From: a bacterium
Lineage (GTDB): Bacteria > Patescibacteriota > Patescibacteriia > UBA9934 > GWF2-40-263
Reading direction: 5' to 3'
Assembly (NCBI GenBank): GCA_020051955.1
Contig: JAGVQB010000045.1
Coordinates: 1,356 to 65,355, forward strand
Length of the DNA stretch: 64,000 nt
Shown here piece after piece: positions 25,350 through 53,019 of the stretch; within the stretch, counting starts at the first letter, position 1; each line of letters begins with the position of its first letter. The position numbers and the translations under genes are program-made. The notes under the pieces were generated by a model. That model worked only from the letters and a program-made list of their open reading frames with translations. It was not told where the DNA came from and did no database searches.

Positions 25350-26084
25350 ATGGCAAAGAAAAAGATTCGACGTTTCGACATTCTGACAATTTTTCCAGAA
25401 ACAGTGACGCCCTATGTTCAGGCGTCGATTTTGGGTCGCGCGCAGGAGGCTGGGTTGATTGAGGTTAAGACGCATGACCTTCGCGTGTGGTCGACTGATA
25501 AGCATCATAAAGTTGATGACACGCCATATGGCGGGGGCCCTGGGATGGTGATGAAGGTTGAACCGTTTGAGAGGGCGGTGAGGGAACTCAAGGGAGGAGG
25601 GGTGAGGGGTGAGGGGAGAGGGAGGAGGGAGGAGGTGAGAGGGAAGACGCGGGTGATTCTTACGTCGGCTTCTGGTGAGACGTTCACTCAGAAAGACGCG
25701 AAGAGGTTGGAAAAGTACGATCACCTTATCTTTTTGTGCGGTCGTTATGAGGGAGTTGATCATCGCGTAGAAGAGTATGTCGCGGATGAAGCGTTTTCGA
25801 TCGGGGAGTATGTTTTAACTGGCGGTGAGTTACCTGCAATGGTGATGATAGACGCGATCGCGCGTCTGGTGCCTGGTGTGATTGAAAAAGATTCGCTCGC
25901 GCGCGAGTCGCATAGCAAGAAAGGTTACCGCGAGCATCCACAATATACGAAGCCCGCGGTTTACAGTCCCGGGGCTAGTGGGAGGGGTAAGACGATTGCA
26001 CAGTGGGAGATTCCCGACGTCCTTCTCTCCGGCGATCACAAAAAAATCGAGGAGTGGCGCAACAAACATTCAGTTACAAAATAA
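25350..26084 (+). CDS. trmD: tRNA (guanine37-N1)-methyltransferase
   Basis: FDILTIFPE, TPYGGGPGMVMKVEP and YEGVDHRV...VLTGGELPAMVMIDAIARLVPGV are TrmD SPOUT motifs. It also contains a G-rich low-complexity insert, KGGGVRGEGRGRREEVRGKT. Confidence 0.92.
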   Translation: MAKKKIRRFDILTIFPETVTPYVQASILGRAQEAGLIEVKTHDLRVWSTDKHHKVDDTPYGGGPGMVMKVEPFERAVRELKGGGVRGEGRGRREEVRGKTRVILTSASGETFTQKDAKRLEKYDHLIFLCGRYEGVDHRVEEYVADEAFSIGEYVLTGGELPAMVMIDAIARLVPGVIEKDSLARESHSKKGYREHPQYTKPAVYSPGASGRGKTIAQWEIPDVLLSGDHKKIEEWRNKHSVTK

Positions 26085-26108
26085 CGACCCAGTGTGGGTC
26101 GTTTGTGT
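26085..26108. terminator. bidirectional terminator between trmD and the convergent hypothetical gene
   Basis: CGACCCAGTGTGGGTCG hairpin followed by TTTGTGT. Confidence 0.55.
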
Positions 26109-26122
26109 CTAGAACGCTGTCT

Positions 26123-26551
26123 CTAGCAGTGGTCGATGTCGCAGATGTCCACCAGAACGCCGCCCAGGCTGATCGCCGATCTTGTGGCAGTCTCGAATCG
26201 ACTCGAGCTTGCCGGCGTGCTACCCAGCATGGCGTGATGGCGCGCCAGACCGTTGGCGATGTAGAGGAAGAAATTGTTCGATGCCACACTGTCCTCGGGC
26301 GACAGTCGCAGGAACGGAGCGAAATGCAAACGTGTGAAGATCGGAACCCTGCGGTACTCTTCCGCATTCCTGAGGAACGTCGAGAGGGCACGTTCTATCT
26401 CAGTCGGTGCCATACTTGCGTCGTGGAGGCCGCGTTGCATCTTCTCGTCGCACATCTCTTCATGCATGATCTCGACACCTTCGCGCCAGATCACACACGC
26501 CCACCTGCCGTTCTTGCAAAGAACGAGGTTGAATACGTCCCCTGCCTTCAT
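26123..26551 (-). CDS. hypothetical protein (142 aa), GC-rich
   Basis: ATG at 26551 preceded by AGGAGG. There is no family-level similarity I can recognise. It lies downstream of rlmN on the same strand. Confidence 0.5.
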   Translation of the reverse strand: MKAGDVFNLVLCKNGRWACVIWREGVEIMHEEMCDEKMQRGLHDASMAPTEIERALSTFLRNAEEYRRVPIFTRLHFAPFLRLSPEDSVASNNFFLYIANGLARHHAMLGSTPASSSRFETATRSAISLGGVLVDICDIDHC

Positions 26552-26611
26552 CACATCCTCCTGCGGACTTAGACAGACACCGCGCCGCGCGGTGTGTCTC
26601 TGTGTACGAGG

Positions 26612-27667
26612 CTAGTCGAAATTGGCGGGATTGTCAATGGATAGTTGCCCGCAGGCGGCCGTTATATCAGCACCCATCGCGCGGCGCACAGTGGCAGTGA
26701 CGTTATTTTTTTGTAGGGAGTCGTGGAAGGCGGTGATCGTTGTGTCATCAGAGCGTTCAAAATCAACACCTGTCAGGTTGTAGGGGATGAGGTTTACTTT
26801 TATGCGGCCGATTCGGTTTACAAAAGTTGAAAGCGCCTTGGCGTGAGTGGGGGAATCGTTTACTCCCTTGAGCATAACGTATTCGAAAGTGAGGTGATGG
26901 CGTCTGTTGCCGTGGAGCTTGAGATAATTCTTTGCCCAGCGTTCAAGTCCAGGCAGAAATTCATCGTAAGAAGTTGGTACGATTTGTTTGCGCGTTGATT
27001 CGATCGCGGAGTGGAGAGAAACAGCCAGGCGCACAGGCGGCCATTGTTTGTCAGTGAGGATTTGTTCCAGGCGCGGGAGTATGCCAACAGTTGAAACGGT
27101 AATGTGCGTGGGACCAATGTCGGTTTTTGCAAGCAATGTGTTGAGCGCGCCGCGGACTTCTTCGTAGTTCGCAAGTGGTTCTCCCATGCCCATTATTACG
27201 ATATTGGAAATGCGAGGCGAGGTGGTGAGGTGGTCAGGTGGTAAGGTGTTTTCGGAATACATTTTCCAAAAACGATATTGATCAACAATTTCATCACTTG
27301 AGAGGTTGCGCGTGAGTCCCATCTTTCCAGTCGCGCAAAAACTGCATCGCATCGCGCAACCAACCTGCGAGGACACGCAGATCGTCCATGCCCCACGCCG
27401 GTTGGCCATAAGCACACTCTCGATTTGTTTGCCACCCTCCACGTTGAGCAGAGCTTTGTGCGTTTCGCCATTCGCGCTGACTTGAATGTTGGCAAGCCCA
27501 ACCGACAGCCATGGGATTTCCTTGAGGCTCTCGCGCATGGATTTGGGAATTGTCGTTGCTTCATCCCAACCATTGGCAGACGAAAAAAGCGCGTCCTCGA
27601 TTTGCTTCCAGCGAAAAGCCGGTTCGTTTGGGAAAAGTTTTTCGAATTGAGTTTTGCGTGTCTCCAT
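26612..27667 (-). CDS. rlmN: 23S rRNA/tRNA (adenine-C2)-methyltransferase, radical SAM (RlmN/Cfr family)
   Basis: Radical-SAM cluster CAMRCSFCATG, plus GMGEPLANY and the C-terminal Cys region. 351 aa, the size of RlmN. Confidence 0.88.
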   Translation of the reverse strand: METRKTQFEKLFPNEPAFRWKQIEDALFSSANGWDEATTIPKSMRESLKEIPWLSVGLANIQVSANGETHKALLNVEGGKQIESVLMANRRGAWTICVSSQVGCAMRCSFCATGKMGLTRNLSSDEIVDQYRFWKMYSENTLPPDHLTTSPRISNIVIMGMGEPLANYEEVRGALNTLLAKTDIGPTHITVSTVGILPRLEQILTDKQWPPVRLAVSLHSAIESTRKQIVPTSYDEFLPGLERWAKNYLKLHGNRRHHLTFEYVMLKGVNDSPTHAKALSTFVNRIGRIKVNLIPYNLTGVDFERSDDTTITAFHDSLQKNNVTATVRRAMGADITAACGQLSIDNPANFD

Positions 27668-27712
27668 AAAATAATAGGCGAGAGCTTCTGCTCCCGCCTA
27701 TATTATATCTGA

Positions 27713-28060
27713 TTATTGCGCTGGTGTTTCAGCTGGTTTTTCTTTTGCGGCTTCCGCGGCTTTTGCGTCGAGTTTGGTTTTGCGCGTTTTTGAGATGTGG
27801 CTTACGCCGCGCTTCTCGCCTTCCACGATTTTTTCATCAACGAGCAGGTTCCACAGTGTGCTAGACACTTCAGCTCCTTGCGCGATCCAGTATTTAACGC
27901 GGTCAGCGTTGATTACCAATTCGCGTGGGTTTTTGCGTGGATCAAAGTGGCCGAGGATTTCTGTGTACTTAGCCCACGGGTCGCGGTGTTTTGGGATTAC
28001 GATGACTCGGTAGATTGGCGCGCCAGTTTTCCCAACGCGAGAGAGACGGATAGAAAGCAT
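27713..28060 (-). CDS. rpsP: 30S ribosomal protein S16 with short K/A/E-rich C-terminal extension
   Basis: MLSIRLSRVGKTGAPIYRVIV...YTEILGHFDP is the canonical bS16 N-terminus. Confidence 0.93.
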   Translation of the reverse strand: MLSIRLSRVGKTGAPIYRVIVIPKHRDPWAKYTEILGHFDPRKNPRELVINADRVKYWIAQGAEVSSTLWNLLVDEKIVEGEKRGVSHISKTRKTKLDAKAAEAAKEKPAETPAQ

Positions 28061-28146
28061 AATTTTGGTCGTTGTGTTTGATTACGTAAACCGTGCCGCA
28101 AGGATAAGGAATCTGACTGGGAATGTCAACAAATAAGCCAAATACC

Positions 28147-28175
28147 TTGACAAAACGGTCAAAATATGATATTCT
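28147..28175 (+). promoter_or_regulatory. sigma70-like promoter (TTGACA-17-TATTCT) feeding a ~200 nt structured leader
   Basis: TTGACAaaacggtcaaaatatgaTATTCT. The downstream leader carries two tandem CAGGCTnnAGCCTG hairpins before the ATG at 28382. Confidence 0.5.
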
Positions 28176-28381
28176 TGTCTCTTCTGTTTATTGTGAGAAG
28201 GGAGGAATTCCTCAATTGAGTGACTTATTTCCTGGTAGCCGCAGGCTTTAGCCTGTGTGCGATTCACGCGGCGCAGGCTGTAGCCTGCGGCCGCCACGGA
28301 AAGAATCGGCCGTTCAGTTGAGGGATTCATCCCCTGCCGTTGCTCATCCCGAGCGCGGTGCAAGTAAAGAGGTACGAGAAG

Positions 28382-28849
28382 ATGTCCAAGAACGTTGCCA
28401 TGCTCGTCTGCGCGGTTCTGTTCTTCCTCGCGGCCGTCGCCCAGGTGGCGCACGCCGACGAGACTTCGGTCGCGCCCGCGACCGTCTCGGTCACCTACGC
28501 CGGCGAGGAGTGGAAGCCCGGCAAGGCACTGGGCATCTGCGTCCAGACGGGTCTGCGGTCGAAGGGTCTACTCGGCGACTACTCCGTGGTCTTCAGCTTC
28601 ACCACGGAGAGCGTCATGACGTCGAGAGAGAGGTTCTGGGGTGCTCTTAGCTTCCTCCTCATCGACAGCGACGAGAACCTGATCTCCATGGCCTTCGGGC
28701 AGGAGGTCGGGGAGACGGCTGAGGAGTTGAAGCAGAGAGCGATCGGAGGAGACAAGCTGTCTCCAGGCGGTCGCTACTTCCTCTCGACCTGCGAGACACT
28801 CACGAATACCGTCGTGAGCTTCGTCCCGCGGGCGGAGGTGAAGGAGTAG
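28382..28849 (+). CDS. small secreted hypothetical protein (155 aa), very GC-rich
   Basis: ATG at 28382 with AAGAGG upstream. Signal peptide MSKNVAMLVCAVLFFLAAVAQVAHA. Sample lines give 65-73 % GC. Confidence 0.6.
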   Translation: MSKNVAMLVCAVLFFLAAVAQVAHADETSVAPATVSVTYAGEEWKPGKALGICVQTGLRSKGLLGDYSVVFSFTTESVMTSRERFWGALSFLLIDSDENLISMAFGQEVGETAEELKQRAIGGDKLSPGGRYFLSTCETLTNTVVSFVPRAEVKE

Positions 28850-29921
28850 GACGGAACCGGAACTAAGACAAGAAACGGGGGGTGCGGAGGAACGTCGATG
28901 GACGACGACAGGGAGCTCATGAGGGATCTGGTGGAGATCTGGGTGGTAACCACCCTGTTTCAACTCCTCCTTTTCTGTGGGGCGTACCTGATAGGGTACT
29001 TCTTCACCGGGTTCTCGAGTTGAGTCCACGGAACCTGGAATGCGTCCGCGTGGCGCCAGGTTTCAAATCAACGCGGCGGATCGCAGTTCACCAGATCCGA
29101 GTATTCGCAACCGAGCTCGTAGGTGGAACGGGCTCAAATGGAGTAGACATGGGCTACAGCTAGAAGGAAGCGTCTGGAGGTCGTAAGACCAAGTCACGGC
29201 CAGGCGTGGATACATAAGTGACCCGGCGTACTATGCGAGGTTGCCAGACGTGAGAGTTAGGAACGGAAAGGGACAGAAAGCCCGAGTACAAGTACGAAGC
29301 GATACCGTCTGAAGCAATCACTCGAGAGCAATCTCGGGACGTCGGGGAGTGGTAACACTCCGAAGGGTCGCGCCAAAGCATGGGAGCCGTTGACAGTGAA
29401 GGCTCAAAGGGCTGGCAACCCAATCTGTCAAAAAGGCCTTGTGAGTTTGGCCTCCTGTCTACGGACGGGTCAAATGAACTCTCCTTGGTTGTGGCGGTCA
29501 ACAACCCGTTTTCAATCCGCGTTTTAAGAAAAACGAGGACTTTGGTCGGCAGAGTTCGACACGGCGCGCGAGACGTTCTTGCGCCACTTGCCAGCGGTGT
29601 ATCACTGGCAGACTCGCATTTCGCGAGCGGGGAATTGTGTGGCGCCCTTAAAGGCCACTTTGCAGAAGGAGGTCAGAAATGACTTACCCGTTGCTGTTCT
29701 ACGATGTTACAAACGCGCTTTCCCCTGAGCGCGCCAAAAAACCAAAGGTAAGGGGGTAAGGATCTCGGCCGTCAACGTGACAAAACGGCCGGGGATCCTA
29801 ACGATACTTTCCCCGGTCGCTTGGGCGCCTCCCGCGTCCATCACGTTGCGTTCCGGGGTCCTCTACCGAAATGCTGATTGTTACATCGCGTACCAATCGG
29901 CAGGTCAGTTGAGAGAAACAT
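28850..29921 (+). other. ~1.07 kb GC-rich segment without credible ORFs (candidate structured RNA or foreign remnant)
   Basis: All six frames are broken into ORFs shorter than 115 codons with implausible composition. There are many local hairpins. A 26-codon sORF with a perfect AAGGAGG Shine-Dalgarno sequence sits at 29679-29759. The segment ends at a strong terminator at 29922-29948. Confidence 0.4.
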
Positions 29922-29948
29922 AAAACACGTCTTTATGAGACGTGTTTT
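29922..29948. terminator. bidirectional rho-independent terminator
   Basis: AAAACACGTCTTTATGAGACGTGTTTT: an 11 bp perfect stem with A and T runs. It abuts the relE stop. Confidence 0.75.
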
Positions 29949-29949
29949 G

Positions 29950-30216
29950 TTATAGATGGTGATAGATATCTTTGCGATGGCAGATTCTGTGTAGAATAAT
30001 TTTTGATCGATCGAATGTATAAATTAAACGGTAGTCACCCACACGTAAGCGCCAAAGTGGCGGACGTGTGAACCCAGAAAGTTTTTTAATGTCGAGCGTC
30101 GCATTGATTGGGTTTAGTTGAAGTAGCTTTGCGATCACGTCTGCCTTAATTTGTATTTGGATCGGAAGACTACGAAAATCCTTCGTGAATTGCCGAGTCA
30201 CGACGATCTCTCGCAT
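29950..30216 (-). CDS. relE: RelE/ParE-family type II toxin (88 aa)
   Basis: RLRVGDYRLIYTFDRSKIILHRICHRKDIY matches the conserved RelE/ParE C-terminal core. Confidence 0.8.
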   Translation of the reverse strand: MREIVVTRQFTKDFRSLPIQIQIKADVIAKLLQLNPINATLDIKKLSGFTRPPLWRLRVGDYRLIYTFDRSKIILHRICHRKDIYHHL

Positions 30217-30219
30217 ACT

Positions 30220-30414
30220 TTAAACGAGCTCGCGAAGGGAACGCACTGTTCGCGTCTTTCCTTGCGTGGCTTCTTTAATAGAACGTCGCAACCCCTTTTG
30301 AAACACTGGGTCAAAATCGCCAGACCTCTCAAGGATATCTTCCACTAGATTTGCAAGATTCAAACTTGCACGAAAGATGCGGCGTAATTTTAGTTGAGTT
30401 ACAGTTTGGTTCAT
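30220..30414 (-). CDS. putative cognate antitoxin (RHH/ParD-RelB-like, ~64 aa)
   Basis: Small ORF ending 3 nt before relE, at ATG 30414. MNQTVTQLKLRR... has antitoxin-like size and position. The family assignment is tentative. Confidence 0.5.
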   Translation of the reverse strand: MNQTVTQLKLRRIFRASLNLANLVEDILERSGDFDPVFQKGLRRSIKEATQGKTRTVRSLRELV

Positions 30415-30517
30415 ACATACGCAAGTTAACACGGAGTAAAGCTAGGAGTCCAGTTTTTTGTTGATTCCTTTCTCCGTTTGGGTTTTGGATTTTGGTTTTT
30501 TGGATTTTTCGGTTTCA

Positions 30518-32788
30518 TTACCTCCTCGCAACCCCATTCTGCGTGATTTCCTCCAGGTGGACTGACAACAAGCTCGAAATGCCGTCAGTGCCCATTGTTA
30601 CGCCATAGAGAATATCTGCTTTTTCCATTGTCGCGCGGTTGTGGGTGATGACGATGAATTGGCTAGTGCGCGCGAGGTCCTCCAGGATCGCGGCGAAGCG
30701 GATTGTGTTGGCTTCATCAAGCGCGGCATCAACCTCGTCGAGCACAACAAACGGCGCTGGGTTTACTGCCATGATTGCGGAGACAAGAGCGATTGATGTA
30801 AGCGCGCGCTCACCACCGGAAAGCAGGTTTAACGCCTTGAGCCTTTTCCCAGGCGGGGTTGCTTGGATGTCGATGCCGACAATTTTTTCCTCCGCGTTTA
30901 CCCGTTCCCTGTTCACCGTTCCCTGTTCACTGTTCCCTCCCTCTACCGTTTCCTCCACCTCTTCCCTCGTCAACTTCACCAACGCGCACGATCCTCCACC
31001 GAAAAGCATTTTGAAATATCGCTCAAACTCTTTATTGATTTTGGAGAACGTTGCCTTTGACTGTTTTTCAATTTGTTCGTCGAGTTCCTTGATTATTTTT
31101 TCTGTTGACGCGAGAGCGGCGTTGAGGTCTTTGACCTGCTCATCAAGAAATTCGAAACGATCTTTTGTCTCGCCGTATTCTTTTACTATTTCCGGATCAA
31201 TTCCACCTATGAGTTCGAGCTTGTATCGAAGGCGCTGGATTTCGGGATAGGCTTCATCGGTTTGGATTTTGGATTTTGGATTTTGGATTTTTTCCTGCCT
31301 CACCCCCACCGCCCTCTCCTTCATAAACTCATCCATCTCCCGCGTGAGGGCTTTTTGGCGTTCCTCAAAACGCACTAAAGCGATTTGGAGAGTGTTGCGC
31401 TCGTTTTCTAGCAAGTGGGTTTGATTTTGTTTTTCGCGCAGGGAATGTTGCAAGCCGATAAGTTCACTTCGGGCAGTGCGTTCCTTACTTGTGTAGTTGT
31501 CGATTGTTTTTTCAAGCTCGTCAATTTCTTTTACTAGATTTTGTTCTTGCGTTCGCTTGGTTTTCAGTTCCTCAACCATTTTTGGATCAGGCTTGATGTC
31601 TTCTGGGTTTGGGCGCTGAAGACTTTTGGAAAGTTTTTGTGACCGCGTAAGAAGTGACTCGATTCCATCCAAAATTGCCTCCAGCCCTTTCAGCCCTCGC
31701 AGTCCTTTTAGTCCTTCCACCATTCCCTCAACCTCCTCAACGATTTTCAACAAAGGAAGCGGCGCCCAATTTGATTGCGCGCGCGCTCGCGCGAGTTCGA
31801 TTTCTTTTTCGAGCGAGAATTGCTCGCTCCGCAAAGCCTCACGTTTTTTTCCAAGCGCTTTGTATTGATTCTTCAAACCTACCAGTTGTGTGTCCTCATC
31901 GGTCCCAAAGTTTTCAGCGCGCTCTGATTCTTTTTCAAGCGTGTGAAGTTCTGCCCTCTCGGTTTTAATTTTTTTCTCAATCTCATCAAACCCCTGTCTT
32001 GCTGTTTCCAATTCGTCCATCAGGTTCCACCATTGAGAACCGTAATAACACGACTCAAGCTCGTGGAGGGCTTTTTCAATCTCACCGCGTTGTTCAAGAC
32101 GTACTGCTTGGCGCTTAAGAGAACGAAGCCGCGGTTCGATTTCCCGCAACAGCATTTCAACCTCTGTCAGATTTTCGTGTGTGCGCGTGAGTTTTAACAA
32201 TGCCTCGTGTCGTTTGATTTGGAATGGTTTTACTCCGGTGGCATCGTCAAAAAAATCTTTGCGCTCCTCTGGAGATGAAACAAGAATGTGGTCAATCATG
32301 CCTTGTCCGATAACGCAGTACGAACGCTGTCCAACGTTTGCTTCTGCCAGAAGTAGTTGGATATCAGCAAGGCGAACAGAGCCCTCGTTGAGGAGATAAT
32401 CGGAAGTTCCATCTCGAAACAGCCTCCGCGTGATTACTACCTCTGGGTATTCAAGTGGCATTGTTTTGTCTTGGTTGTTGAAGGTCAAAGATACTTGCGC
32501 AAAGCCAGATCGTCCTTTGCCATCAGAGCCAGAAAAAATTACATCCTCTGATTTTTTTCCACGCAAAAGTTTAAGACTTTGTTCACCCAGCACCCATCTG
32601 ATCGCGTCAGCAAGGTTTGATTTACCGCTACCATTTGGACCAACGATGGAGGTGATGGGGAATCGTAATTCCCCCCCTGCCCGAGGGGGGGTCAGGGGGG
32701 GTGGGAGTGCGGCCGGTGGGAGAAAAGAAAGCGTTGTTTTTTTTGCAAACGTTTTGAACCCCTGCAGTTCCAGTTTAGTAAGAAACAT
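30518..32788 (-). CDS. SMC/RecF-superfamily ATPase with long coiled coils (SMC-like, 756 aa, no obvious hinge) carrying several low-complexity inserts
   Basis: N-terminal Walker A (GPNGSGKSNLADAIRWVLGEQS), a long heptad-rich middle, and C-terminal signature plus Walker B (LSGGERALTSIALVSAIMAVNPAPFVVLDEVDAALD). The inserts LPPAALPPPLTPPRAGGELR, KIQNPKSKIQ and VEETVEGGNSEQGTVNRERVNAE are encoded by simple repeats. Confidence 0.8.
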   Translation of the reverse strand: MFLTKLELQGFKTFAKKTTLSFLPPAALPPPLTPPRAGGELRFPITSIVGPNGSGKSNLADAIRWVLGEQSLKLLRGKKSEDVIFSGSDGKGRSGFAQVSLTFNNQDKTMPLEYPEVVITRRLFRDGTSDYLLNEGSVRLADIQLLLAEANVGQRSYCVIGQGMIDHILVSSPEERKDFFDDATGVKPFQIKRHEALLKLTRTHENLTEVEMLLREIEPRLRSLKRQAVRLEQRGEIEKALHELESCYYGSQWWNLMDELETARQGFDEIEKKIKTERAELHTLEKESERAENFGTDEDTQLVGLKNQYKALGKKREALRSEQFSLEKEIELARARAQSNWAPLPLLKIVEEVEGMVEGLKGLRGLKGLEAILDGIESLLTRSQKLSKSLQRPNPEDIKPDPKMVEELKTKRTQEQNLVKEIDELEKTIDNYTSKERTARSELIGLQHSLREKQNQTHLLENERNTLQIALVRFEERQKALTREMDEFMKERAVGVRQEKIQNPKSKIQTDEAYPEIQRLRYKLELIGGIDPEIVKEYGETKDRFEFLDEQVKDLNAALASTEKIIKELDEQIEKQSKATFSKINKEFERYFKMLFGGGSCALVKLTREEVEETVEGGNSEQGTVNRERVNAEEKIVGIDIQATPPGKRLKALNLLSGGERALTSIALVSAIMAVNPAPFVVLDEVDAALDEANTIRFAAILEDLARTSQFIVITHNRATMEKADILYGVTMGTDGISSLLSVHLEEITQNGVARR

Positions 32789-32865
32789 ACTGGGAAATTA
32801 TAACATGGAACGCACGATTATTGACCCAAAATAGCCAAGAGGTTATGCTATTCGGCTACTTGAAT

Positions 32866-33840
32866 ATGGAGACTTATTTGCACAGACATATTCACGACTT
32901 GTTACTCAAGGCTGATCACCCTGTATTTATTGCTGACGAACGCATTGATGGTGATACGCTTGGATCAGCTTTGGCTGTCGCGGATTATCTTGCGTCGCTT
33001 GGCAAGAAAGTACCCGTGTTTGTTTCCGCGCCAGTGCCCGTGCAGTATCAGCGTCTACCTCGAGTGTCCCAGTGTACGACTGACATCCAGGTGTTTGCTG
33101 ATCCTTCTATTGATCTAGTTGTGAGTTTTGATTGTTCTGATGGAAAGTTTATCCATTCATTTGTTGAACAGATTCCAGCTCGTCCAACCCTAGTGAACAT
33201 TGATCACCACACGACAAATGATCGTTATGGGGACGTGAACCAGGTCATTGATGGTGCTCCTGCGACAGCTTACGTTATTTATCGGTTTTTTGAGGTGAAC
33301 CGAATTCTCCCTTCAAAGGATGCGGCAACATGCCTTCTTGTCGGATTGTGTTTTGACACAATGGCGTTTACCAATTCAGCGACCAACGATGGTGTACTTG
33401 AGGCCGCGTCCCAGTTAGTCCTGTTGGGCGCGCGTGTTCAAGACGTGATCCGCTCACTTTATCAGAATCGTTCAATAGCCGCGTTGCGCGTGTGGGGGCT
33501 TGCACTTGAGCGTTTGCAAGAGGATTCTGTTCAAGGAACACTTTCCACGTTTTTGACACGCAATGACTTGGATGGAAACCAAGTAACAGATGACGAGATA
33601 GATGGCATCTCGAATTTTTTAAACATCGTCATCGAGTCAAAGATACTTTTGGTTTTAAGAGAAACTCCATTGGGGGACGTGAAGGTGTCCATGCGTTCAC
33701 TTACGCAGGACGTAAGCGTTATAGCGAAAGCGAACGGTGGGGGGGGGCACGTACGTGCCGCTGGGTATACAATTCCACGAGCGGTTCTTGTTTGTGGGGA
33801 TAATGGCTGTTGGAGAGTGGAAAAAAAGCAGATAAATTGA
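32866..33840 (+). CDS. nrnA: DHH-family phosphoesterase NrnA (bifunctional oligoribonuclease / pAp phosphatase)
   Basis: DHH motif VNIDHHTTN, the DHHA1 GGGH motif (NGGGGHVRAAG), and the N-terminal DGDTLGSALAVADYL. Start set at the ATG at 32866. Confidence 0.85.
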   Translation: METYLHRHIHDLLLKADHPVFIADERIDGDTLGSALAVADYLASLGKKVPVFVSAPVPVQYQRLPRVSQCTTDIQVFADPSIDLVVSFDCSDGKFIHSFVEQIPARPTLVNIDHHTTNDRYGDVNQVIDGAPATAYVIYRFFEVNRILPSKDAATCLLVGLCFDTMAFTNSATNDGVLEAASQLVLLGARVQDVIRSLYQNRSIAALRVWGLALERLQEDSVQGTLSTFLTRNDLDGNQVTDDEIDGISNFLNIVIESKILLVLRETPLGDVKVSMRSLTQDVSVIAKANGGGGHVRAAGYTIPRAVLVCGDNGCWRVEKKQIN

Positions 33841-33864
33841 TAAACTGATGCCATCGAAATAATC

Positions 33865-34786: not shown

Positions 34787-34809
34787 AAACGTCGCGAGAC
34801 GTTTTTTTG
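34787..34809 (+). terminator. rho-independent terminator ~320 nt downstream of clpP (possible sRNA end)
   Basis: AAACGTCGCGAGACGTTTTTTT. It is preceded at 34602-34636 by TTGACA-17-TAGACT. Confidence 0.55.
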
Positions 34810-35017
34810 ATTTCGTAACCTCTTGTCGGATAGTACGTCGATTGCGAGTGAGCATGCAAGGAAAACTGTGGATAAAAATAGTCGGGCGGTGGCATATTGT
34901 TATATTGATAAATTGTTAAATGGTTAAATTGTTGTGGAGCAAGACGATGGGCGGCAGACAAAACGTCTATCTAGACAACCATTTAACAATATAACCATTT
35001 AACAATTTAACCCTCTG

Positions 35018-42494: not shown

Positions 42495-42576
42495 CTCAGG
42501 AGATCCCTGCATTGACCGATATAAGACAGGCTGATAAATTATTCGTGGCAAGGAAACAACGAAACGGAGAGAGAAC

Positions 42577-45138: not shown

Positions 45139-45237
45139 GTTTTTGAGTGTCTGTTTGCCGTGAGCGAACGGCAGTATTGACCCTAATACGACAGAGGGAA
45201 ATGTGCAAACAAAAAACCGAGGAGGTACCTCGATTAT

Positions 45238-45708: not shown

Positions 45709-45713
45709 AGAAA

Positions 45714-46184
45714 TTATTTTATCGCTCTTATTACTGTGATCGAAGTCTGCCCATCCATTTCACTTACAGCCACCGAAATTATAACATCGCCTTTTTGAAA
45801 CACCTTCATAAGTCTTCCGTTGTAATTGGAATCAGTTTCCATCTCCCACCCATCGCCCAAGAGTTCGTCTTCATACCACTGCGCGACAGAAGCTAGACTA
45901 GCGGTCGTCGTCGAGAGAAGCGTCGCGCCTTGGTTTGGGATAACTGATGCGGCGAGGATTTGCGCGCCTTCATACACAGGCACGTCAGATGGAAAGTCGT
46001 TTGGGATTTGCGCGTTTTCGCCAATGCTCGCGTACGCGCCAGTCTCTTTGTCTTCGTAGGTATAAGTGTCGTCCGCGATGTTGATTTCACCAGAGTCGCT
46101 TGGTTGCGCGGTTTGTTGAGTACGGTTAAAACATCCGCCACCAATGAGCACAAGGGTAAAGAGTGGGAACAGGAGAAATTTCAT
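45714..46184 (-). CDS. putative lipoprotein (signal peptide plus LIGGGC lipobox-like)
   Basis: MKFLLFPLFTLVLIGGGCF followed by a Thr/Ser/Asp-rich mature domain. Confidence 0.55.
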   Translation of the reverse strand: MKFLLFPLFTLVLIGGGCFNRTQQTAQPSDSGEINIADDTYTYEDKETGAYASIGENAQIPNDFPSDVPVYEGAQILAASVIPNQGATLLSTTTASLASVAQWYEDELLGDGWEMETDSNYNGRLMKVFQKGDVIISVAVSEMDGQTSITVIRAIK

Positions 46185-46303
46185 AAGATGGTCGAACATA
46201 CCACTTAAGGACCGATCGGACCTTAAATGGTATGAGTTATTGTTAAAAGTTTTGAAATAAGTGATGATTGTTACTACTTTACCATTATTTTAAGCTCAAT
46301 TCC

Positions 46304-46403
46304 ATCCCGTTCAAACACCGCGTCATCACCGTTAAACCGCTGACAAGTGACGTCGTCTCTTCCTGCGCGGTTTACCGATTTTGGCGCAGCGTTTGAACGG
46401 GAT
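46304..46403 (+). repeat. MITE-like ~100 bp element, copy B, in the typA leader
   Basis: ATCCCGTTCAAACACCGCGTCATCACCGTTAAACCG...GGTTTACCGATT...GCGTTTGAACGGGAT. It is about 80 % identical to 20303-20402 and shares the same 13 bp termini. Confidence 0.7.
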
Positions 46404-46446
46404 CTATCTTGACCGATCGGGTTCCTTCGTATACTCTTCTCGCGTT

Positions 46447-48270: not shown

Positions 48271-48330
48271 TTTAAAAGGCGGGAGCAAAGGCTCCTGTCT
48301 TTTTTGTAGGTAGCCTGCGCCTATTTTGGG

Positions 48331-48430
48331 TAACGAATGCGAATCTCGTGCGAATATACTAATAGGACGATGCTATTCGCATATTCGCACGACATTCGTA
48401 TTCGCTCTACTGTAATCTGTAGATCGGTAG
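48331..48430 (+). repeat. copy 2 of the ~100 bp palindromic interspersed repeat (IR-element) with CTGTAATCTGTAGAT box
   Basis: Reverse complement of 15555-15653 with about 95 % core identity. It lies between the typA terminator and the 3' end of the minus-strand MFS gene. Confidence 0.75.
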
Positions 48431-48433
48431 CTT

Positions 48434-49669
48434 TTATGTCCCTACCTCTTGAACCGCAACAGGCTCATCGCTATGAGCCAACGTTCGCATCAACCGTTTG
48501 AGTAACCACAGAACTGGCAACTGAACGACAAACATCATCACAAGTCCATAACGAATCGTTGCGTCTGGGGCGAGGTGGTAAGCGAGGATAAATAAGAGAA
48601 GCCCGACCACGCGGCCAAAGTTGAGACAGTACTCGCGGTCGAGGATGTAAAGAAAACGGTGCTCGCTATCACGTTTCACTTCTCGATCCACCACCTCATA
48701 CAGGACCGTGACAAACGATGACCAGCGTAATGATCCAGTAATGCCCGCGATAATAAAGTACGCGATCGCGGAAGCGGCCGTGAACACGCTTGCGAAAAGC
48801 GCGCCAGCAAGGAGGTTCACAGCGACCCAGATTCCGACCAGCATTAGGTGATGTTTGTGACGCACGCGCTTGCCGATCGCGTAGATCATGATGGCGGAGA
48901 GCACGCCAGTGAGAGCCTTCACGCTACCAACGGCTTCCTCCTGACCAAGAAAAAGGAGTACGACCAAAAGTGGAATCACGACTTCCAGGCCACTGGTTAT
49001 GCTATTGAGCATTTCGATTGCTCGTTGCTGGTTCCACCTAGCGGTCGCGTGTCGAACAAACGGCGTGTTCACGACAAACGGTTCGATTACAAATTTGTGT
49101 GCGAGCACGCCGGTCGCGATGAGGAGGACGAGCCCGATCCCAGCGCAAAGTTGATACGCTTGTGCGACAGAGTAGGAAGGAATCGTGCCACCAAGCGCGA
49201 TGAACCAACCAATAACCAACGGCGAGACGATCCCTGCCACGATTCCAAGCATTGTCTCCACGCTGATAAATCTAAATCGTCGCGCGTCCTGCGTAAACTT
49301 TGATGTGATGCTATTGCGGTTAGCCCAGTAGAAACCTTGTGCGAGTCCAAGAGCGAGTCCAAGTGGGAGAGTGTAATCAGCCGCGGAAGCGCCCATTGAT
49401 ACTAAGAGCACTGGGATGAGTCCTTGCGCAAGACAACCAAAGGCATAGAGCTTGCCACTTTGCCACACTCGTAGCGCGTAGGCATTAACGAGAAATCCAA
49501 GCGAGATCCCCGCGTACATTCCAATGTTGAAAATCCCAAGCGTGATTGGGTCATGGTCCAGTCGCCACAAGAAAGTATTTGTGTAAACAGACACCATTGG
49601 CGAGGCAAGCGCGAAGAGGAAAAAAGATAGGAGTAGGCGACGTTGATTTTGGGAGAGGTCGTTGAGCAT
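48434..49669 (-). CDS. MFS-type membrane transporter (411 aa)
   Basis: 12 predicted TM helices with an MFS-like repeat structure. ATG at 49669. Confidence 0.65.
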   Translation of the reverse strand: MLNDLSQNQRRLLLSFFLFALASPMVSVYTNTFLWRLDHDPITLGIFNIGMYAGISLGFLVNAYALRVWQSGKLYAFGCLAQGLIPVLLVSMGASAADYTLPLGLALGLAQGFYWANRNSITSKFTQDARRFRFISVETMLGIVAGIVSPLVIGWFIALGGTIPSYSVAQAYQLCAGIGLVLLIATGVLAHKFVIEPFVVNTPFVRHATARWNQQRAIEMLNSITSGLEVVIPLLVVLLFLGQEEAVGSVKALTGVLSAIMIYAIGKRVRHKHHLMLVGIWVAVNLLAGALFASVFTAASAIAYFIIAGITGSLRWSSFVTVLYEVVDREVKRDSEHRFLYILDREYCLNFGRVVGLLLFILAYHLAPDATIRYGLVMMFVVQLPVLWLLKRLMRTLAHSDEPVAVQEVGT

Positions 49670-49689
49670 ATTGATGGAAAGTATACTGC

Positions 49690-49880
49690 CGACAAAGTTC
49701 AAAAAACAAATTACAACTGACAAATTACAAGCAATTTACAATGAACAAATTACAAACAAATTACAATTAACAATTTACAATAGGCGGTGCAAACAATTTC
49801 AGTGCCCCCGTTTGTAATTTGTCCAATTGTGATTTGTTAATTTGTTTCTTGCCCATTTGTCATTTGCGTTTTTGTGTGGC
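49690..49880. repeat. iteron-like array: ~8 direct copies of ACAAATTACA followed by ~6 inverted copies (TTGTAATTTG), forming a ~170 bp imperfect palindrome
   Basis: The left arm is ACAAATTACAACTGACAAATTACAAGCAATTTACAATGAACAAATTACAAACAAATTACAATTAACAATTTACAA. The right arm reads GTTTGTAATTTGTCCAATTGTGATTTGTTAATTTGTTTCTTGCCCATTTGTCATTTG. Confidence 0.7.
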
Positions 49881-49904
49881 CACTGTAGGCTTTAGGTAAG
49901 AAAT

Positions 49905-50978
49905 ATGCAGACACACGATCAGCTTCCAACAAAAGAAGACCTCTTCCCATTATTAGAAAAACTGTTTGGTTTTTCATCGATTCAGGATTTGGTTCTAATC
50001 GTCGGTGGGCATTTGAGTAAGAATTTTTTGCTTTTGGTTGGCGGAGAAAAATATTTTCTTAAACAATACCGCTACAAGCTCAACCCCGTTATACATCAGA
50101 TTAAATTCGCGGAGACTTTTTATTCGTCAAAGGGGGTAAGGGTGATAATGCCATTGCGTGATAGGTTTGATCGCCCAGCTTTTTTCTTTAATGGAAATTG
50201 GTTTAGTCTGTTTCCTTTTATTGATAAAAAGGCAATTGAAATTTCACAGCTTACTGACGACGGGCTGATGACGCTTGCGAACCAATTAGGCGTCATGCAC
50301 ACGGCCGGGAAAGATGCTGGAAAGACGACGCAGTCTCTTTTGATGTGGGATAAAAATCGTTTTAACCTCGATGTATGTGAGCTTGAAATGAAACTTGAGA
50401 GTACGGACGTGCAAGAAACAACGAACATGTTGATAGCCAGCGTCCTAGAGCAAAAAAAGAAATTCGTTGAGAAAAATATTTTTGCCCTAGAGGATATCTC
50501 TCTTCCTTTTGACACATTGCTCCACGGAGATCTTAGTTACCAGAACGTATTTTTTTCACCTGATCAGAAACAGATCGATTATGTTTTTGATTTTGAAAAA
50601 ACCGCGCGCGGGCCTCGCGCGTTCGAACTCGCTCGCTCGATATGTATAAATGTATTTGATGATGGGTGGGATGATAAACGACTTGAAAAGGCCACCTTAT
50701 TTTTGCGAGCGTATCAAGAGGTGGCCCCGATTACCTACGAGGAATTTTTAATCGGGCTTCGGGCGTATCTGGTTCTTACTGCTCACCAGCTGTGGATTGA
50801 ATGGAAGATACTTTTTTGTGGTGAAACAAAATATATTCCTCTGTTACGTTCACATAGCATTAGGATCAACCATTTGGGGGATGGCATTGATACACTGGCG
50901 ACATCAATTTATGGGAGGCAAATAGGATCACATGAATTTCCACCCCCGTCACCCCTGCCACCTGTGTCACCCTTGTAA
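49905..50978 (+). CDS. aminoglycoside/choline-kinase-type phosphotransferase family protein (APH-like) with Pro-rich C-terminal repeat
   Basis: The Brenner motif LLHGDLSYQNVFF and a downstream DFE are typical of PF01636. The C-terminus PPPSPLPPVSPL is encoded by CACCC repeats. Confidence 0.75.
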   Translation: MQTHDQLPTKEDLFPLLEKLFGFSSIQDLVLIVGGHLSKNFLLLVGGEKYFLKQYRYKLNPVIHQIKFAETFYSSKGVRVIMPLRDRFDRPAFFFNGNWFSLFPFIDKKAIEISQLTDDGLMTLANQLGVMHTAGKDAGKTTQSLLMWDKNRFNLDVCELEMKLESTDVQETTNMLIASVLEQKKKFVEKNIFALEDISLPFDTLLHGDLSYQNVFFSPDQKQIDYVFDFEKTARGPRAFELARSICINVFDDGWDDKRLEKATLFLRAYQEVAPITYEEFLIGLRAYLVLTAHQLWIEWKILFCGETKYIPLLRSHSIRINHLGDGIDTLATSIYGRQIGSHEFPPPSPLPPVSPL

Positions 50979-51043
50979 CCCTTGTAGCTCTTGTCACCTT
51001 TGTTTTTCCCTCCCTCCTCACCACACACCATTGCCACATACCA

Positions 51044-51072
51044 CCAACGGTTGACAGGCCGTTGGTTTTTTT
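51044..51072 (+). terminator. rho-independent terminator of the APH-like gene
   Basis: CCAACGGTTGACAGGCCGTTGGTTTTTTT. Confidence 0.65.
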
Positions 51073-51142
51073 GTAGGGTTCGCGTGCGAAAGGCAAAACC
51101 ATTGCCAATCATTTGGAGGGGCATACAACCCAGGAGGAAGTC

Positions 51143-51862
51143 ATGGCAACCCCAGCCCGGTTCTACCGAACGCCACACGAGTTCACAATGGCGTTCATGG
51201 CCAATGTCGCAAAGACGTCGGCCACGGCAGTGACAGGGCAACAGAAGGGGCGCCATCGGCACCGTCCTGGGAAGCCCTACGCAGGAGTATCTGGTGATGA
51301 GCTCGCAGGGAAGGTGTTCGCGAACATGCGTTCTGTCGCACGCATGATTGCGACGGTTTCAGACCCAAACCGCCCACACACGGACTGGACAGTTCGGCAG
51401 TTCGTGGCACAGACAGTGCATCTCATACACAGGGGGATCAAGAACGCCAAGCGGATGAAGGCGCTGAGGACTCACCAAACAGCTCGTGGGTACGGTTGCT
51501 CTGCGGAGCGCGTACCAGAGTTGTGGGAGGAGTTCATTCGGGATCTGCAGATGAAGATGAAGCTGGACGAAGATGATCCGCAAGAGCTGTGCGCTTGGGT
51601 CGAATACCAAGTGCGCTTCAAGATCCATCCGTTGGCGGATGGGAGCGGAAGGTTGGCCACGGCGCTCGCGGCTTGGATCATGTTCCGGGCAGGGCGTGCG
51701 ATTCCCAACTACAGCTTCCTGCAGAGAAGCGAAATGCATGCCAAGCTCCGCGAGGGCGAAGTTGCGTTTCGTGAGTACTATCTGCGGGTGTGCTTTAGTG
51801 AGGGGGGTCCAAAGGAGCTGACCCCAACGGGAACAAACCCTCCTGACGAAGCAGCCGCCTGA
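51143..51862 (+). CDS. Fic/Doc-family protein (239 aa), GC-rich, stand-alone
   Basis: AGGAGG then ATG at 51143. IHPLADGSGRLATALAAWIM fits the Fic active-site motif HPFx(D/E)GNGR. GC is about 62 %. It has its own terminator at 51886-51930. Confidence 0.7.
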   Translation: MATPARFYRTPHEFTMAFMANVAKTSATAVTGQQKGRHRHRPGKPYAGVSGDELAGKVFANMRSVARMIATVSDPNRPHTDWTVRQFVAQTVHLIHRGIKNAKRMKALRTHQTARGYGCSAERVPELWEEFIRDLQMKMKLDEDDPQELCAWVEYQVRFKIHPLADGSGRLATALAAWIMFRAGRAIPNYSFLQRSEMHAKLREGEVAFREYYLRVCFSEGGPKELTPTGTNPPDEAAA

Positions 51863-51948
51863 GGGCGAGCTGCTGGTACGACGCCGGACTGACTTACGAG
51901 CCAGTCCGTTTTCTTTTTCCGATTTTTTTTGTAGGATGTCTGTCACAT

Positions 51949-53019
51949 ATGCGTGTCCTTGGAATCGAAACAAGTTGTGATGAAACAGCGGCGGCGATTG
52001 TGTCTGAGTATGACGGTAGTTTTGTGATTGAAAAAAGCGTGCTGGCATCGCAGGCGAAGATTCACGCGCAATACGGCGGAGTAGTGCCAGAGGTTGCCGC
52101 GCGTGAGCATGCCGCGTTTTTGTTTCCGCTGTTGGAAGAGCTTGGTGTGCCGCGAGACGGCGCGGGGATTGACGCGCTCGCCGTGACTTATGGTCCTGGG
52201 CTTGTGCCTGCGTTGCGGGTGGGGGTGGAGGCGGCCAAGGCACTCGCGTGGTGCTGGGGCAAACCGTTGGTGGCAGTGAATCATTTGGAGGGGCACATAT
52301 ATAGCGTGTGGTTGGATGGGGAAGGAAAGATCCAAAATCCAGGAACCAAAATCCAAACAACGCAAAGTAACTCAGTTGAGTTTCCAGCAGTATGCCTGCT
52401 TGTGTCAGGTGGGCATACCGAGCTTGTTCTCATGCGAGATCATGGTGAGTACGAGTTGCTGGGAATGACGCGAGATGACGCGGCTGGGGAGGCGTTTGAT
52501 AAAGTCGCAAAGTTGTTGGGACTGCCGTACCCAGGTGGTCCAGAGATTTCGAAAGTGGCGCTTAATGGGAACCCACGCGCGGTTAATTTTCCAAGGCCGA
52601 TGATTGAGTCCGGGGATTTGGATTTTAGTTTTGCTGGATTGAAGACGGCGGTGAGGGTTTTTGTCGAAGGTGGGGAGGTGGGGAGGTGGGGAGGTGATTT
52701 AGATATTGCGGATATTGCCGCGAGTTTTCAGCAGGCTGTGGTTGACGTGCTTGTCTCAAAGACCTTACAGGCGGTCAAGAAAGTCGTGCCGCGCAGTGTG
52801 ATTTTGTCGGGCGGTGTGTCTGCGAACAAGTTACTTAAAGAAATACTTGAGAGCGAATTGCGTCGCGTTGCCCCAGAGATTCCATTTTATGTCCCAGAGC
52901 TTTCTCTTACTGGCGACAACGCCGCTATGATCGCGGCCGCGGGTATCATGCGCGCCAAGCGCGGGGCGTTTGCTGACCCTCTCACACTGGTCGCGGATCC
53001 GAACGCGAAATTAAACTAG
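51949..53019 (+). CDS. tsaD: tRNA N6-adenosine threonylcarbamoyltransferase (Kae1/TsaD), with two low-complexity inserts
   Basis: MRVLGIETSCDETAAAIV and the HLEGH metal-binding site. Inserts KIQNPGTKIQTTQS and EGGEVGRWGGDLDI are present. Confidence 0.92.
   Translation: MRVLGIETSCDETAAAIVSEYDGSFVIEKSVLASQAKIHAQYGGVVPEVAAREHAAFLFPLLEELGVPRDGAGIDALAVTYGPGLVPALRVGVEAAKALAWCWGKPLVAVNHLEGHIYSVWLDGEGKIQNPGTKIQTTQSNSVEFPAVCLLVSGGHTELVLMRDHGEYELLGMTRDDAAGEAFDKVAKLLGLPYPGGPEISKVALNGNPRAVNFPRPMIESGDLDFSFAGLKTAVRVFVEGGEVGRWGGDLDIADIAASFQQAVVDVLVSKTLQAVKKVVPRSVILSGGVSANKLLKEILESELRRVAPEIPFYVPELSLTGDNAAMIAAAGIMRAKRGAFADPLTLVADPNAKLN

Follow-up and report, generated by a model that had tools for sequence, protein, structure and literature searches.

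Why do genes as conserved as trmD, smc and tsaD carry short repetitive stretches in frame within their coding sequence, and did these stretches grow in place, do they act as switches, or are they copies of repeats that also occur elsewhere? The present study takes up this question in 64,000 nt of contig JAGVQB010000045.1 (assembly GCA_020051955.1), the whole of which is referred to as the window. The window is assigned to a Candidatus Uhrbacteria genome (Patescibacteria, also termed Candidate Phyla Radiation, CPR), and the closest relatives of its TsaD, SMC and TrmD proteins are annotated as Candidatus Uhrbacteria or Parcubacteria. Two kinds of repeat were found: a dispersed element of ~39–41 nt built on runs of C and G (TCCCCCCCCTGCCCGAGGGGGGGYTAGGGGGGGTGGGAG), and several families of short tandem arrays. 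It is likely that this repeat DNA was inserted or expanded and that selection has kept, within genes, the copies that have no stop codon, add a multiple of three nucleotides, encode a hydrophilic peptide and lie in permissive loops.

In-frame inserts in housekeeping genes

The initial annotation of the window described simple-sequence insertions in trmD, smc, tsaD and an APH-like gene, with the same repeat types between genes, and read them as a genome-wide propensity for microsatellite-like insertions tolerated in surface loops or, alternatively, as slipped-strand contingency sites. All of the tracts that it listed are present, in place or displaced by a few bases, and encode the peptides given for them once three descriptions are corrected. 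Two in-gene tracts were absent from its list, an array in an RlmN-like gene and a second insert in trmD. The host genes, each followed by its tracts, are as follows (TRF, Tandem Repeats Finder).

25350–26084 (+): trmD, tRNA m1G37 methyltransferase (Pfam PF01746, E=8e-53; PDB matches, E=1e-51)
25591–25647 (+): trmD loop site 1, G-rich tandem array of AGGGAGG and GGGGTGA units (TRF), encoding GGGVRGEGRGRREEVRG
25965–26003 (+): trmD loop site 2, second insert (SPGASGRGKTIAQ), missing from PDB TrmDs and most orthologs
26612–27667 (−): RlmN-like radical SAM methyltransferase (NCBIfam TIGR00048, 268.7 bits, just under the cut-off of 290; Pfam Radical_SAM)
27219–27248 (−): array in the RlmN-like gene, (GAGGTGGT)3.8 on the + strand, sense ACCACCTC (TRF; pairwise alignment with L121)
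30518–32788 (−): smc, encoding a short SMC of 756 aa (NCBIfam SMC_prok_B, 614.6 bits, above the cut-off of 567, over two stretches)
30902–30938 (−): variable C-terminal region of smc, 14-mer in 2.6 copies (CCGTTCCCTGTTCA on the + strand; TRF score 67), encoding GNSEQGTVNRERVN
31261–31291 (−): smc linker, perfect (ATCCAAA)4.4 in sense orientation (TRF, 100% matches), encoding KIQNPKSKIQ
32668–32707 (+): copy of the C/G-run element (ATTCCCCCCCTGCCCGAGGGGGGGTCAGGGGGGGTGGGAG), antisense to smc, read as LPPPLTPPRAGGE
49905–50978 (+): APH-like kinase (Pfam APH)
50941–51003 (+): 9-mer array of the APH-like gene (CACCCCTGT / TGTAACCCT), spanning the stop codon
51949–53019 (+): tsaD (Pfam PF00814, E=1e-82; PDB 6nak, E=7e-83)
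52330–52357 (+): tsaD loop site 1, degenerate (ATCCAAA)4 in sense orientation, encoding KIQNPGTKIQ
52668–52696 (+): tsaD loop site 2, perfect (AGGTGGGG)3.6, encoding GGEVGRWGG
Peptides spanning insert junctions: SFLPPAALPPPLTPPR and QEKIQNPK

The corrections concern smc and the APH-like gene. The 14-mer array of smc is real and lies at the narrower position listed above, while VEETVEGG, which it had been said to encode, lies just upstream of it. The tract in the APH-like gene likewise exists, as a 9-mer array that crosses the stop codon and yields a 15-aa C-terminal extension (...EFPPPSPLPPVSPL), the L125 ortholog ending 15 aa earlier. The C7, G7 and G7 runs near the N-terminus of SMC are present as described but are not a tandem microsatellite; they form a hairpin-type element of C7, loop, G7, TCA and G7.

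Alignment with orthologs (40 TsaD, 38 SMC and 32 TrmD) identified the segments as lineage-specific inserts, in frame in trmD, smc, tsaD and the APH-like gene and missing from nearest orthologs and solved structures, at sites that are hot spots of length variation clade-wide. The N-terminal insert of SMC adds 13 aa relative to 36 of 37 aligned Uhrbacteria orthologs and sits beside Walker A, in a hairpin turn just before the P-loop strand, where 21 query residues (24–44) correspond to two residues (24–25) of B. subtilis Smc. Site 1 of TrmD is longer by 14 aa than PDB 8byh and by 9 aa than the syntenic relative L121; the two TsaD inserts add 16 and 5 aa relative to PDB 6nak (Thermotoga TsaD), and the nearest TsaD relative, P0002 (76% identity), has neither of them. 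The array in the RlmN-like gene adds 7 aa (TLPPDHLTTSP). TsaD site 1 is a hypervariable hot spot among the 40 orthologs, the SMC linker is also hypervariable and carries heptamer-type peptides in other orthologs, and so is the 14-mer region in SMC alignment A2.

Mapping onto structures bore out the proposed placement in loops. The inserts fall in gaps or turns of the PDB alignments, a surface location compatible with the fold, and AlphaFold2 (AF2) models of TrmD and TsaD have low confidence only there, with a predicted local distance difference test score (pLDDT) below 50 at TrmD residues 84–97 (site 1) and of ~50–58 at TsaD residues 123–140 and 241–250 (54 at site 2), the TsaD model averaging 88. 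One further repeat of smc, a (GLK)n 9-mer at 31682–31716, was rejected as an insert because it is conserved in orthologs. SMC is ~750 aa long throughout the Uhrbacteria clade (orthologs P0121–P0240), and no hinge domain was detected by Pfam in this short form; one ortholog of 1220 aa, P0153, contains an intein with a LAGLIDADG domain.

The dispersed C/G-run element

The insert beside Walker A is a single representative of a dispersed element composed of a C7–8 run, a 7-nt loop (TGCCCGA or TTCCCAA), G7, 3 nt, G7 and a TGGGAG tail. A nearly identical copy, matching it at ~35 of 38 positions, occupies TrmD site 1 of L124 (GCA_964359375.1), the closest available relative, and a second, related copy lies at TrmD site 2 of the same gene; the element occupies TrmD site 1 of L133 as well. 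Scanning metagenome contigs with the core CCTNCCCNAGGGGGGGNNAGGGGGGG gave 29 loci, and the 25 distinct tabulated copies have the consensus AATCCCCCCCCTGCCCGAGGGGGGGCTAGGGGGGGTGGGAG. They share a 5′ (A)AT and C run and, in subfamily a, the 3′ TGGGAG, which lie outside the search pattern, and conservation then ends abruptly. There are two subfamilies, one (a) with the loop TGCCCGA and the tail TGGGAG and the other (b) with the loop TTCCCAA and the tail TTGCC. The element is thus a multi-copy repeat with a consensus and sharp borders, found in unrelated genes, and the view of the smc tract as one of several microsatellite-like insertions fails for this insert, even though its position in a loop and in frame was rightly described.

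At most of the 29 loci the element lies within a long open reading frame (ORF) that continues on both sides, so that insertion is in frame and non-disruptive. The hosts include TrmD, IleRS, LeuRS, PurB, MiaA, TruB, UvrD, Tmk and glycosyltransferases, with Pfam confirming class I aminoacyl-tRNA synthetases, adenylosuccinate lyase, MiaA, UvrD, Tmk, TruB, an OB-fold aminoacyl-tRNA synthetase and the glycosyltransferase families GT2 and GT4. One host is annotated as Candidatus Andersenbacteria, and GC content of the host contigs ranges from 42 to 71%. At least four of the six frames are in use, read in sense as SPPARGGVRGGGR and IPPLPEGGLGGVG and in antisense as LPPPLTPPRAGG (the window) and PTPPNPPSGRGGI, and the two frames with a TAG or TAA are used by no copy. 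It is considered unlikely that the inserts are bypassed or spliced out, because every in-gene copy keeps the frame and none lies in a stop-containing one. Both of the cleanly measurable insertions (n=2; smc, and TrmD site 2 in L124 versus L133) are 13 codons long, so the element is effectively 39 nt and frame-preserving.

A sequence model built from element copies (R1) found extra copies on the same metagenome contigs. It scored the smc copy, which belonged to its training set, at 51.6 bits and, in the window, also recovered a copy outside that set:

59378–59412 (+): diverged intergenic element copy (TTCCCCCTCCTTTTCAAGGAGGGGTCAGGGGTGGT), upstream of an S1-domain gene (R1, 16.1 bits, E=0.0014)

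This intergenic copy is distinct from shuffled sequence (p~0.003) and has a hairpin of −9.3 kcal/mol (z=−2.8). For the element itself the C run could pair with either G run, with a minimum free energy of −11 kcal/mol and z of about −1 against same-composition shuffles. No copies occurred in IMG/VR viral contigs, and a viral origin was rejected on that ground.

The smc site has been occupied more than once in the clade or has been modified since. The element is found at this site, and identically oriented, in SMC of P0124 (L155), where it has C6 and G6 runs, another spacer, another internal frame (PLHPPSGRGE) and a gain of 27 nt, as opposed to 39 nt in the window, and the nearest relatives of both genes have an empty site. 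This could be because of independent insertion at one site or because one old insertion was frame-reset by homopolymer slippage. An 8-nt direct repeat in smc, CTCCCACC, consists of native LPP codons and the element's own end (CTCCCACCCCCCC), which lies 7 nt away and which the codons mimic; this single case is a hint that microhomology guides integration. In the locus of P0124 (L157, 1–290), a reverse transcriptase (RVT_1) gene and a bAvd-like gene are located a few kb upstream of smc and suggest a diversity-generating retroelement.

Whether other G-rich inserts are also derived from the element is less clear. At trmD site 2 the sequence CCCGGGGCTAGTGGGAGGGGT resembles a shortened subfamily-a element, L124 and L121 carry subfamily-b-like sequence there, and SPPFPRGGKGGLPPD-type element peptides are found at this site in other orthologs, so the insert may on sequence grounds be a shortened relic; R1 gave a partial match only (25971–25982, E=0.22). 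In shuffle-controlled local alignment to the element, the array at trmD site 1 has a marginal, order-specific similarity to the G arm (p~0.04), and the values are ~0.13 for trmD site 2, 0.09 for rlmN, ~0.11 (not significant) for tsaD site 2 and 0.71 for the array upstream of rpmF, with no R1 match at trmD site 1 or tsaD site 2. Decay from the element was kept as an explanation of G-rich arrays only as a weak possibility for trmD. At TsaD site 2, IPPLPEGGAGGV-type element peptides do occur in other orthologs.

Several other translated repeats were seen in related genes. In the TsaD genes of L158 (2118–3380) and L159 (3001–4128), loop site 1 holds quite different coding palindromes of unrelated families, a 13-bp perfect inverted repeat within ~120 nt in L159 and nested GTCATTGCGAG.../...CTCGCAACGAC arms in L158, where site 2 has a subfamily-b element with a nested insert of ~95 nt. 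Palindrome peptides at TsaD site 1 in CPR are of the types VIASEAKQSSEEIASSP..PRNDT, MECKSEGKGKFFDF..HSITQPL and FKAPLGAS..DRPEGRL. The palindromes of L158 and L159 indicate that in-frame palindromic DNA is general in these CPR loops and not peculiar to the window. A membrane protein on L152 (metagenome contig Ga0208373_1009130) contains the C/G-run element and two copies of another translated repeat (...CHPERATRAEGSRV...VVGMTQT... and ...DDRAEKSRDPSASLGMTQT...), so several element families can accumulate in a single gene.

Tandem array families and local slippage

The excess of short tandem repeats noted at the outset is strong. TRF found 45 loci (1351 nt) in the window as against 8.7 loci (182 nt) in second-order Markov shuffles, and 10 loci with a score of at least 50 as against 0.25. 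Repeat density is 8–15 times higher in non-coding than in coding DNA. Allowing up to two mismatches, AAATCCAAAATCCAAA of the ATCCAAA family has 6 matches for 0.19 expected, and GGAGGTGGGGAGGTG of the GGAGGTGG family has 7 for 0.08 expected. Stop codons are present in the purely intergenic units ATTGTTAA, ATCTGTAA and AACCATTT and in no in-gene unit, a pattern that a selective filter would produce. Such arrays are nearly absent from two syntenic relatives, L121 and L123, which makes the arrays recent in the window's lineage; the propensity described as genome-wide is therefore recent and belongs to one lineage, not to the clade as a fixed trait. Across ~24 syntenic ortholog pairs (window versus L121 and L125), indels of at least 3 aa are rare, and extra residues on the window side coincide almost always with repeat DNA.

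The same repeats also occur between genes, as had been described:

30476–30515 (−): intergenic degenerate (ATCCAAA) array of ~4 units, beginning 2 nt past the smc stop codon
59325–59464 (unstranded): intergenic arrays (TCAAGGTTG)4 and (ATCTGTAA)4.9, flanking the diverged element copy
63611–63679 (+): (CACCTCCC)n, complement of the GGAGGTGG family, ending 1 nt before the rpmF start codon
63940–63971 (+): 14-mer in 2.3 copies (CTGTTCACTAATCC) at the 3′ end of rpmF, related to the smc 14-mer

There are two families with three loci each in the window. The (ATCCAAA) arrays, perfect in smc, degenerate in tsaD and degenerate again behind the smc stop codon, have 4.0–4.4 units and an identical orientation relative to the adjacent gene. 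The GGAGGTGG family is found in tsaD, in rlmN (antisense) and, as complement, directly upstream of rpmF. On the mRNA strand the tsaD array at 52668–52696 has three perfect Shine-Dalgarno-like GGAGGTG motifs, and the array before rpmF has the complementary, anti-Shine-Dalgarno-like CACCTCC; rpmF is without an obvious Shine-Dalgarno sequence.

Arrays of at least three ATCCAAA units were found at 120 or more loci in species-representative genomes, mostly of filamentous cyanobacteria (many of them Nostocales), Chloroflexota, Acidobacteriota, Verrucomicrobiota and Planctomycetota, with a few in CPR. Their lengths (129 arrays, L001–L120) are bimodal at ~3.5 and ~4.5 units, with 67 arrays in the four-unit mode as opposed to 9 at five units, and 74 of the 129 start in the phase AATCCAA, across distant phyla. 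Within long ORFs, ~40 of ~130 arrays are read in sense (KSKIQNP) as against ~12 in the hydrophobic antisense direction (FGFWILD). Arrays are thus enriched in non-coding DNA, and intragenic heptamers favour the sense reading.

These figures bear on a rival account, that each loop-coding site gave rise to its own repeat by replication slippage, which was then tolerated, with no copying between loci. Several arrays are indeed perfect head-to-tail repeats (smc 31261–31291 and tsaD 52668–52696, for example), the window has a general excess of tandem repeats, and slippage probably does expand and contract existing arrays, trmD site 1 resembling duplicated GGGGTGA and AGGGAGG units. It would not account for the smc insert, a non-tandem sequence of ~40 nt with nearly identical copies spread over 29 contigs and more than 10 unrelated gene families, and as the sole explanation of that element it is already refuted. 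Neither would it explain why the heptamer and octamer units each recur at three loci within 64 kb, where 0.08–0.19 are expected, so the arrays are not independent products of local slippage. The size mode and start phase of (ATCCAAA) in other phyla are not what a slippage-only process would produce. Pure local slippage is therefore unlikely.

Strain-level comparison did not add to this. L121 and L122 contain the same SMC from two samples with differing gene-call lengths and were tried as a case of indel polymorphism, but their DNA is 99.98% identical and gapless; the length differences come from gene calling and are uninformative on repeat instability. Length polymorphism of the element among close relatives was likewise rejected, as in a MiaA cluster of 92–100% identity the element length is unchanged and differences are found only at the N-terminus.

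Other repeat structures and neighbours in the window are recorded here. There are intergenic foldbacks made of a tandem array and, after it, an array of its reverse complement (34896–34933 and 34977–35012; 49704–49781 and 49807–49867), for example ATTGTTAA.../...TTAACAAT and ACAAATTACAA.../...TTGTAATTTGT, each pair making a long repeat-built foldback; inverted (ATCCAAA) array pairs also occur at the Acidobacteriota loci L020, L070 and L071. The 16S rRNA gene (22602–24505, −) reaches 1904 nt through a single insertion of 412 nt near model position 80, within which an ORF (24040–24402, −) matches PF05635, "23S rRNA-intervening sequence protein" (E=1.6e-22). This is an element of the intervening-sequence type located in 16S, the Pfam family being named for 23S rRNA; that it was built from the window repeats was rejected, since it is one intervening sequence that has an ORF to itself. 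An AbiEii toxin and AbiEi antitoxin pair (6734–8031, −) lies directly downstream of rpoB and rpoC, and an ORF of 1293 aa (9212–13093, +) is without a Pfam or NCBIfam match.

Origin of the inserts and relation to known systems

The likely account given at the outset may be put as a sequence of steps. The Uhrbacteria genome would have been recently colonised by several families of very short repeat DNA. A first class would be the palindrome-like mini-element of ~39–41 nt, dispersed in many CPR-type and other environmental genomes and represented in the window by the smc copy and the diverged intergenic copy, with the insert at trmD site 2, and perhaps also the G-rich array at site 1, as putative decayed copies; a second would comprise short tandem arrays with units of 7, 8, 9 or 14 nt in ~3–5 copies. 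Both would arise mainly in non-coding DNA. Within genes, purifying selection would spare those copies whose added length is divisible by three, that have no stop codon in the frame used, that encode a hydrophilic, flexible peptide (rich in K, Q, N, P and S or in P, G and R), and that sit in surface loops already variable in length within the clade. Spread could be by a single-stranded hairpin inserted by a transposase acting in trans or by template switching guided by microhomology, and slippage in the homopolymer runs of the element could restore or shift the reading frame. The inserts are probably translated and carried as neutral passengers.

Some points weigh against this account. Translation of the inserts, like their neutrality, is read from sequence, and the evidence from this genome consists of 64 kb. 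Occupation of the same loops again and again may reflect survivorship alone and need not mean targeting. There is some circularity in the count of stop-free frames, since ORF continuity was the basis for calling copies intragenic. The hairpin of the element is no more stable than its same-composition shuffles, and the link between the element and the G-rich arrays of trmD, tsaD and rlmN appears weak. No transposase or REP-associated tyrosine transposase (RAYT) gene was among the window ORFs scanned, and no target-site duplication was seen in the aligned element flanks, so the mobility of the element is deduced from its distribution only.

A bolder version of the same account is that the 39-nt element is mobile, active and non-autonomous and has become adapted to residence within coding sequence in the gene-dense genomes of CPR and, by extension, that the four-unit heptamer cassettes of cyanobacteria, Chloroflexota, Acidobacteriota and CPR are inserted as discrete units by an unrecognised mechanism, without growth by slippage. 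The length of the element would keep the frame, with four of six frames open and encoding flexible P/G-rich loops; three homopolymer runs would let slippage reset the frame fast, as the window smc and L155 copies may illustrate; and integration would occur next to sequences that mimic the element end, like the LPP codons of smc. We regard this version as doubtful, with some chance of being correct.

It is also conceivable that the inserts are functional, either because G-rich, hairpin-forming or G-quadruplex-prone DNA regulates translation or mRNA stability or because the P/G-rich peptides add a function. Between L124 and L133 the element at TrmD site 1 has 86% nucleotide identity as against 72% in flanking codons, MiaA has retained its element over 8% protein divergence, the GGAGGTG motifs of tsaD and the complementary array abutting the rpmF start codon would suit a regulatory role, and G-rich heptamers of Xanthomonas and Nostoc form G-quadruplexes and prefer four units (PMC4692102). 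The apparent conservation at TrmD concerns 14 codons only and is equally well explained by recent independent insertion, presence and absence are patchy among close relatives, and the inserts lie in low-confidence loops. Moreover, the element is read in at least four frames and both orientations, so that no single peptide or RNA strand is conserved. A function of this kind has little probability.

Least among the biological alternatives is the contingency-locus idea, in which G7/C7 runs or arrays of 7–8 nt would be slipped-strand on/off switches. Gain or loss of one 7- or 8-nt unit, or of one base in a G7 or C7 run, would indeed shift the frame, and the longest G/C run of the window, a G9 at 33739–33747 (+), lies in another gene, of the DHH family, where it encodes a conserved GGGGH motif. 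G/C homopolymers are nevertheless not enriched (10 runs of at least 6 nt, for 10.4 ± 3.3 expected), and three of the four runs of at least 7 nt belong to the single smc element, so the idea is not supported. The hosts are essential, single-copy housekeeping genes (trmD, tsaD, smc, rlmN) rather than genes concerned with the surface, restriction-modification or interaction with a host, each of the nine in-gene tracts is in the ON frame, and the length of the MiaA element is constant; such switching is highly improbable. Poly-G artefacts or chimeric joins at low-complexity sequence might be suspected in a contig from metagenome assembly with error-prone homopolymers, but are scarcely credible when all in-gene tracts keep the frame, each host protein can be aligned to orthologs on both sides of its tract, independent projects and assemblers have again yielded the element (JGI, ENA Hainich, NCBI GCA_964359375.1, Logan) and identical contigs were obtained from different samples (L121 and L122 as above; L155–L157 identical over the compared smc 5′ region).

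The closest parallel to the C/G-run element is with the Rickettsia palindromic elements (RPE), which are summarised in PMC10969869 (citing Ogata 2000, 2002) as repeats of ~100–150 bp inserted in frame in many housekeeping genes. On that summary, both are dispersed, multi-copy, palindrome-like repeats found in frame in unrelated housekeeping genes of reduced genomes, giving translated extra segments at fold-compatible positions, and both are also intergenic. The differences, as far as the summary goes, are that RPEs form Rickettsia-specific families of greater length whereas the element is ~39–41 nt, built of C/G homopolymers and distributed in CPR and other environmental genomes (GC 0.42–0.71), and that RPEs are without tandem arrays, which in the window share the in-gene role. 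By length and description it is set apart from RPE-1 to RPE-10 as they appear there, with no evident sequence relationship, no alignment to RPE consensus sequences having been made, and its length makes it not a member of the Rickettsia families but something that works like one. What is new is the ~39-nt family read in several frames; the RPE-like mode of life is known already.

The tandem arrays belong to the known class of long heptanucleotide simple sequence repeats (SSRs), such as the cyanobacterial short tandemly repeated repetitive (STRR) sequences, GGGAATC in Xanthomonas and GGGGA(T/C)T in Nostoc (PMC4692102) and TAACTGA in Beggiatoaceae and cyanobacteria (PMC4679880). These are reported to be scarcer than expected within coding sequence and have been discussed as regulatory or G-quadruplex elements (PMC4692102, PMC4679880), and a four-unit preference has been reported for GGGAATC (PMC4692102). 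The window arrays share with them 7-nt units in few copies with about four preferred, many loci per unit, a mostly intergenic location near gene ends, to which the in-gene copies are the exception, and occasional inverted pairs, and (ATCCAAA) in particular has the mode of about four units and dispersal shared with cyanobacteria. The difference is translation within essential genes, as two of three ATCCAAA and two of three GGAGGTGG window arrays lie inside them; also, ATCCAAA allows no canonical three-tetrad G-quadruplex.

Other systems are less similar. Repetitive extragenic palindromic (REP) sequences and bacterial interspersed mosaic elements (BIMEs), mobilised by RAYT transposases (PMC3733652), are likewise palindromic multi-copy repeats of 20–40 nt, for which hairpin movement by an enzyme in trans without target-site duplication is plausible, as it would be for the element. 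REPs, however, have a 5′ GTAG or CGTC tag and are extragenic, whereas the element starts with AAT(C/T)CCCC, ends with TGGGAG and is mostly intragenic, and no RAYT (Y1 transposase) gene was among the scanned ORFs of the 64-kb window. Miniature inverted-repeat transposable elements combine terminal inverted repeats with a target-site duplication, and the aligned flanks show no such duplication. Nematomorpha mitochondrial genes contain perfect coding palindromes of up to 284 bp (PMC6649704), which are also inverted repeats in coding sequence with both arms translated but, unlike the element, are long, mitochondrial and not a dispersed family with conserved sequence. Contingency loci have in common with the window simple repeats in coding sequence whose change in length would shift the frame; in the window the repeats have units of 7–8 nt or are isolated G7 runs, they lie in housekeeping genes, homopolymers are not in excess, and two proxies for ON/OFF length heterogeneity, L121 versus L122 and the MiaA cluster, revealed no variation. 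In the literature searched, where the term STRR was swamped by unrelated uses, there was no paper linking CPR genomes with in-frame palindromic or tandem repeats.

The findings have several implications. First, the inserts show where TrmD, an antibiotic target, and TsaD have naturally permissive loops, and they could serve as strain or lineage markers. Secondly, they cause alignment and phylogenomic noise in marker genes and can pass for low-complexity errors or frameshifts during curation of metagenome-assembled genomes. The ~40-nt element is a searchable sequence, which makes the movement of very small repeats directly testable. Lastly, CPR/Patescibacteria genomes are usually called streamlined and repeat-poor, and selfish or neutral repeats can persist there by being translatable, as is seen in the essential genes smc, trmD, tsaD and rlmN and in aminoacyl-tRNA synthetases. 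As the same strategy is found in Rickettsia, which also has a reduced genome, this may be a general survival route where intergenic space is scarce.

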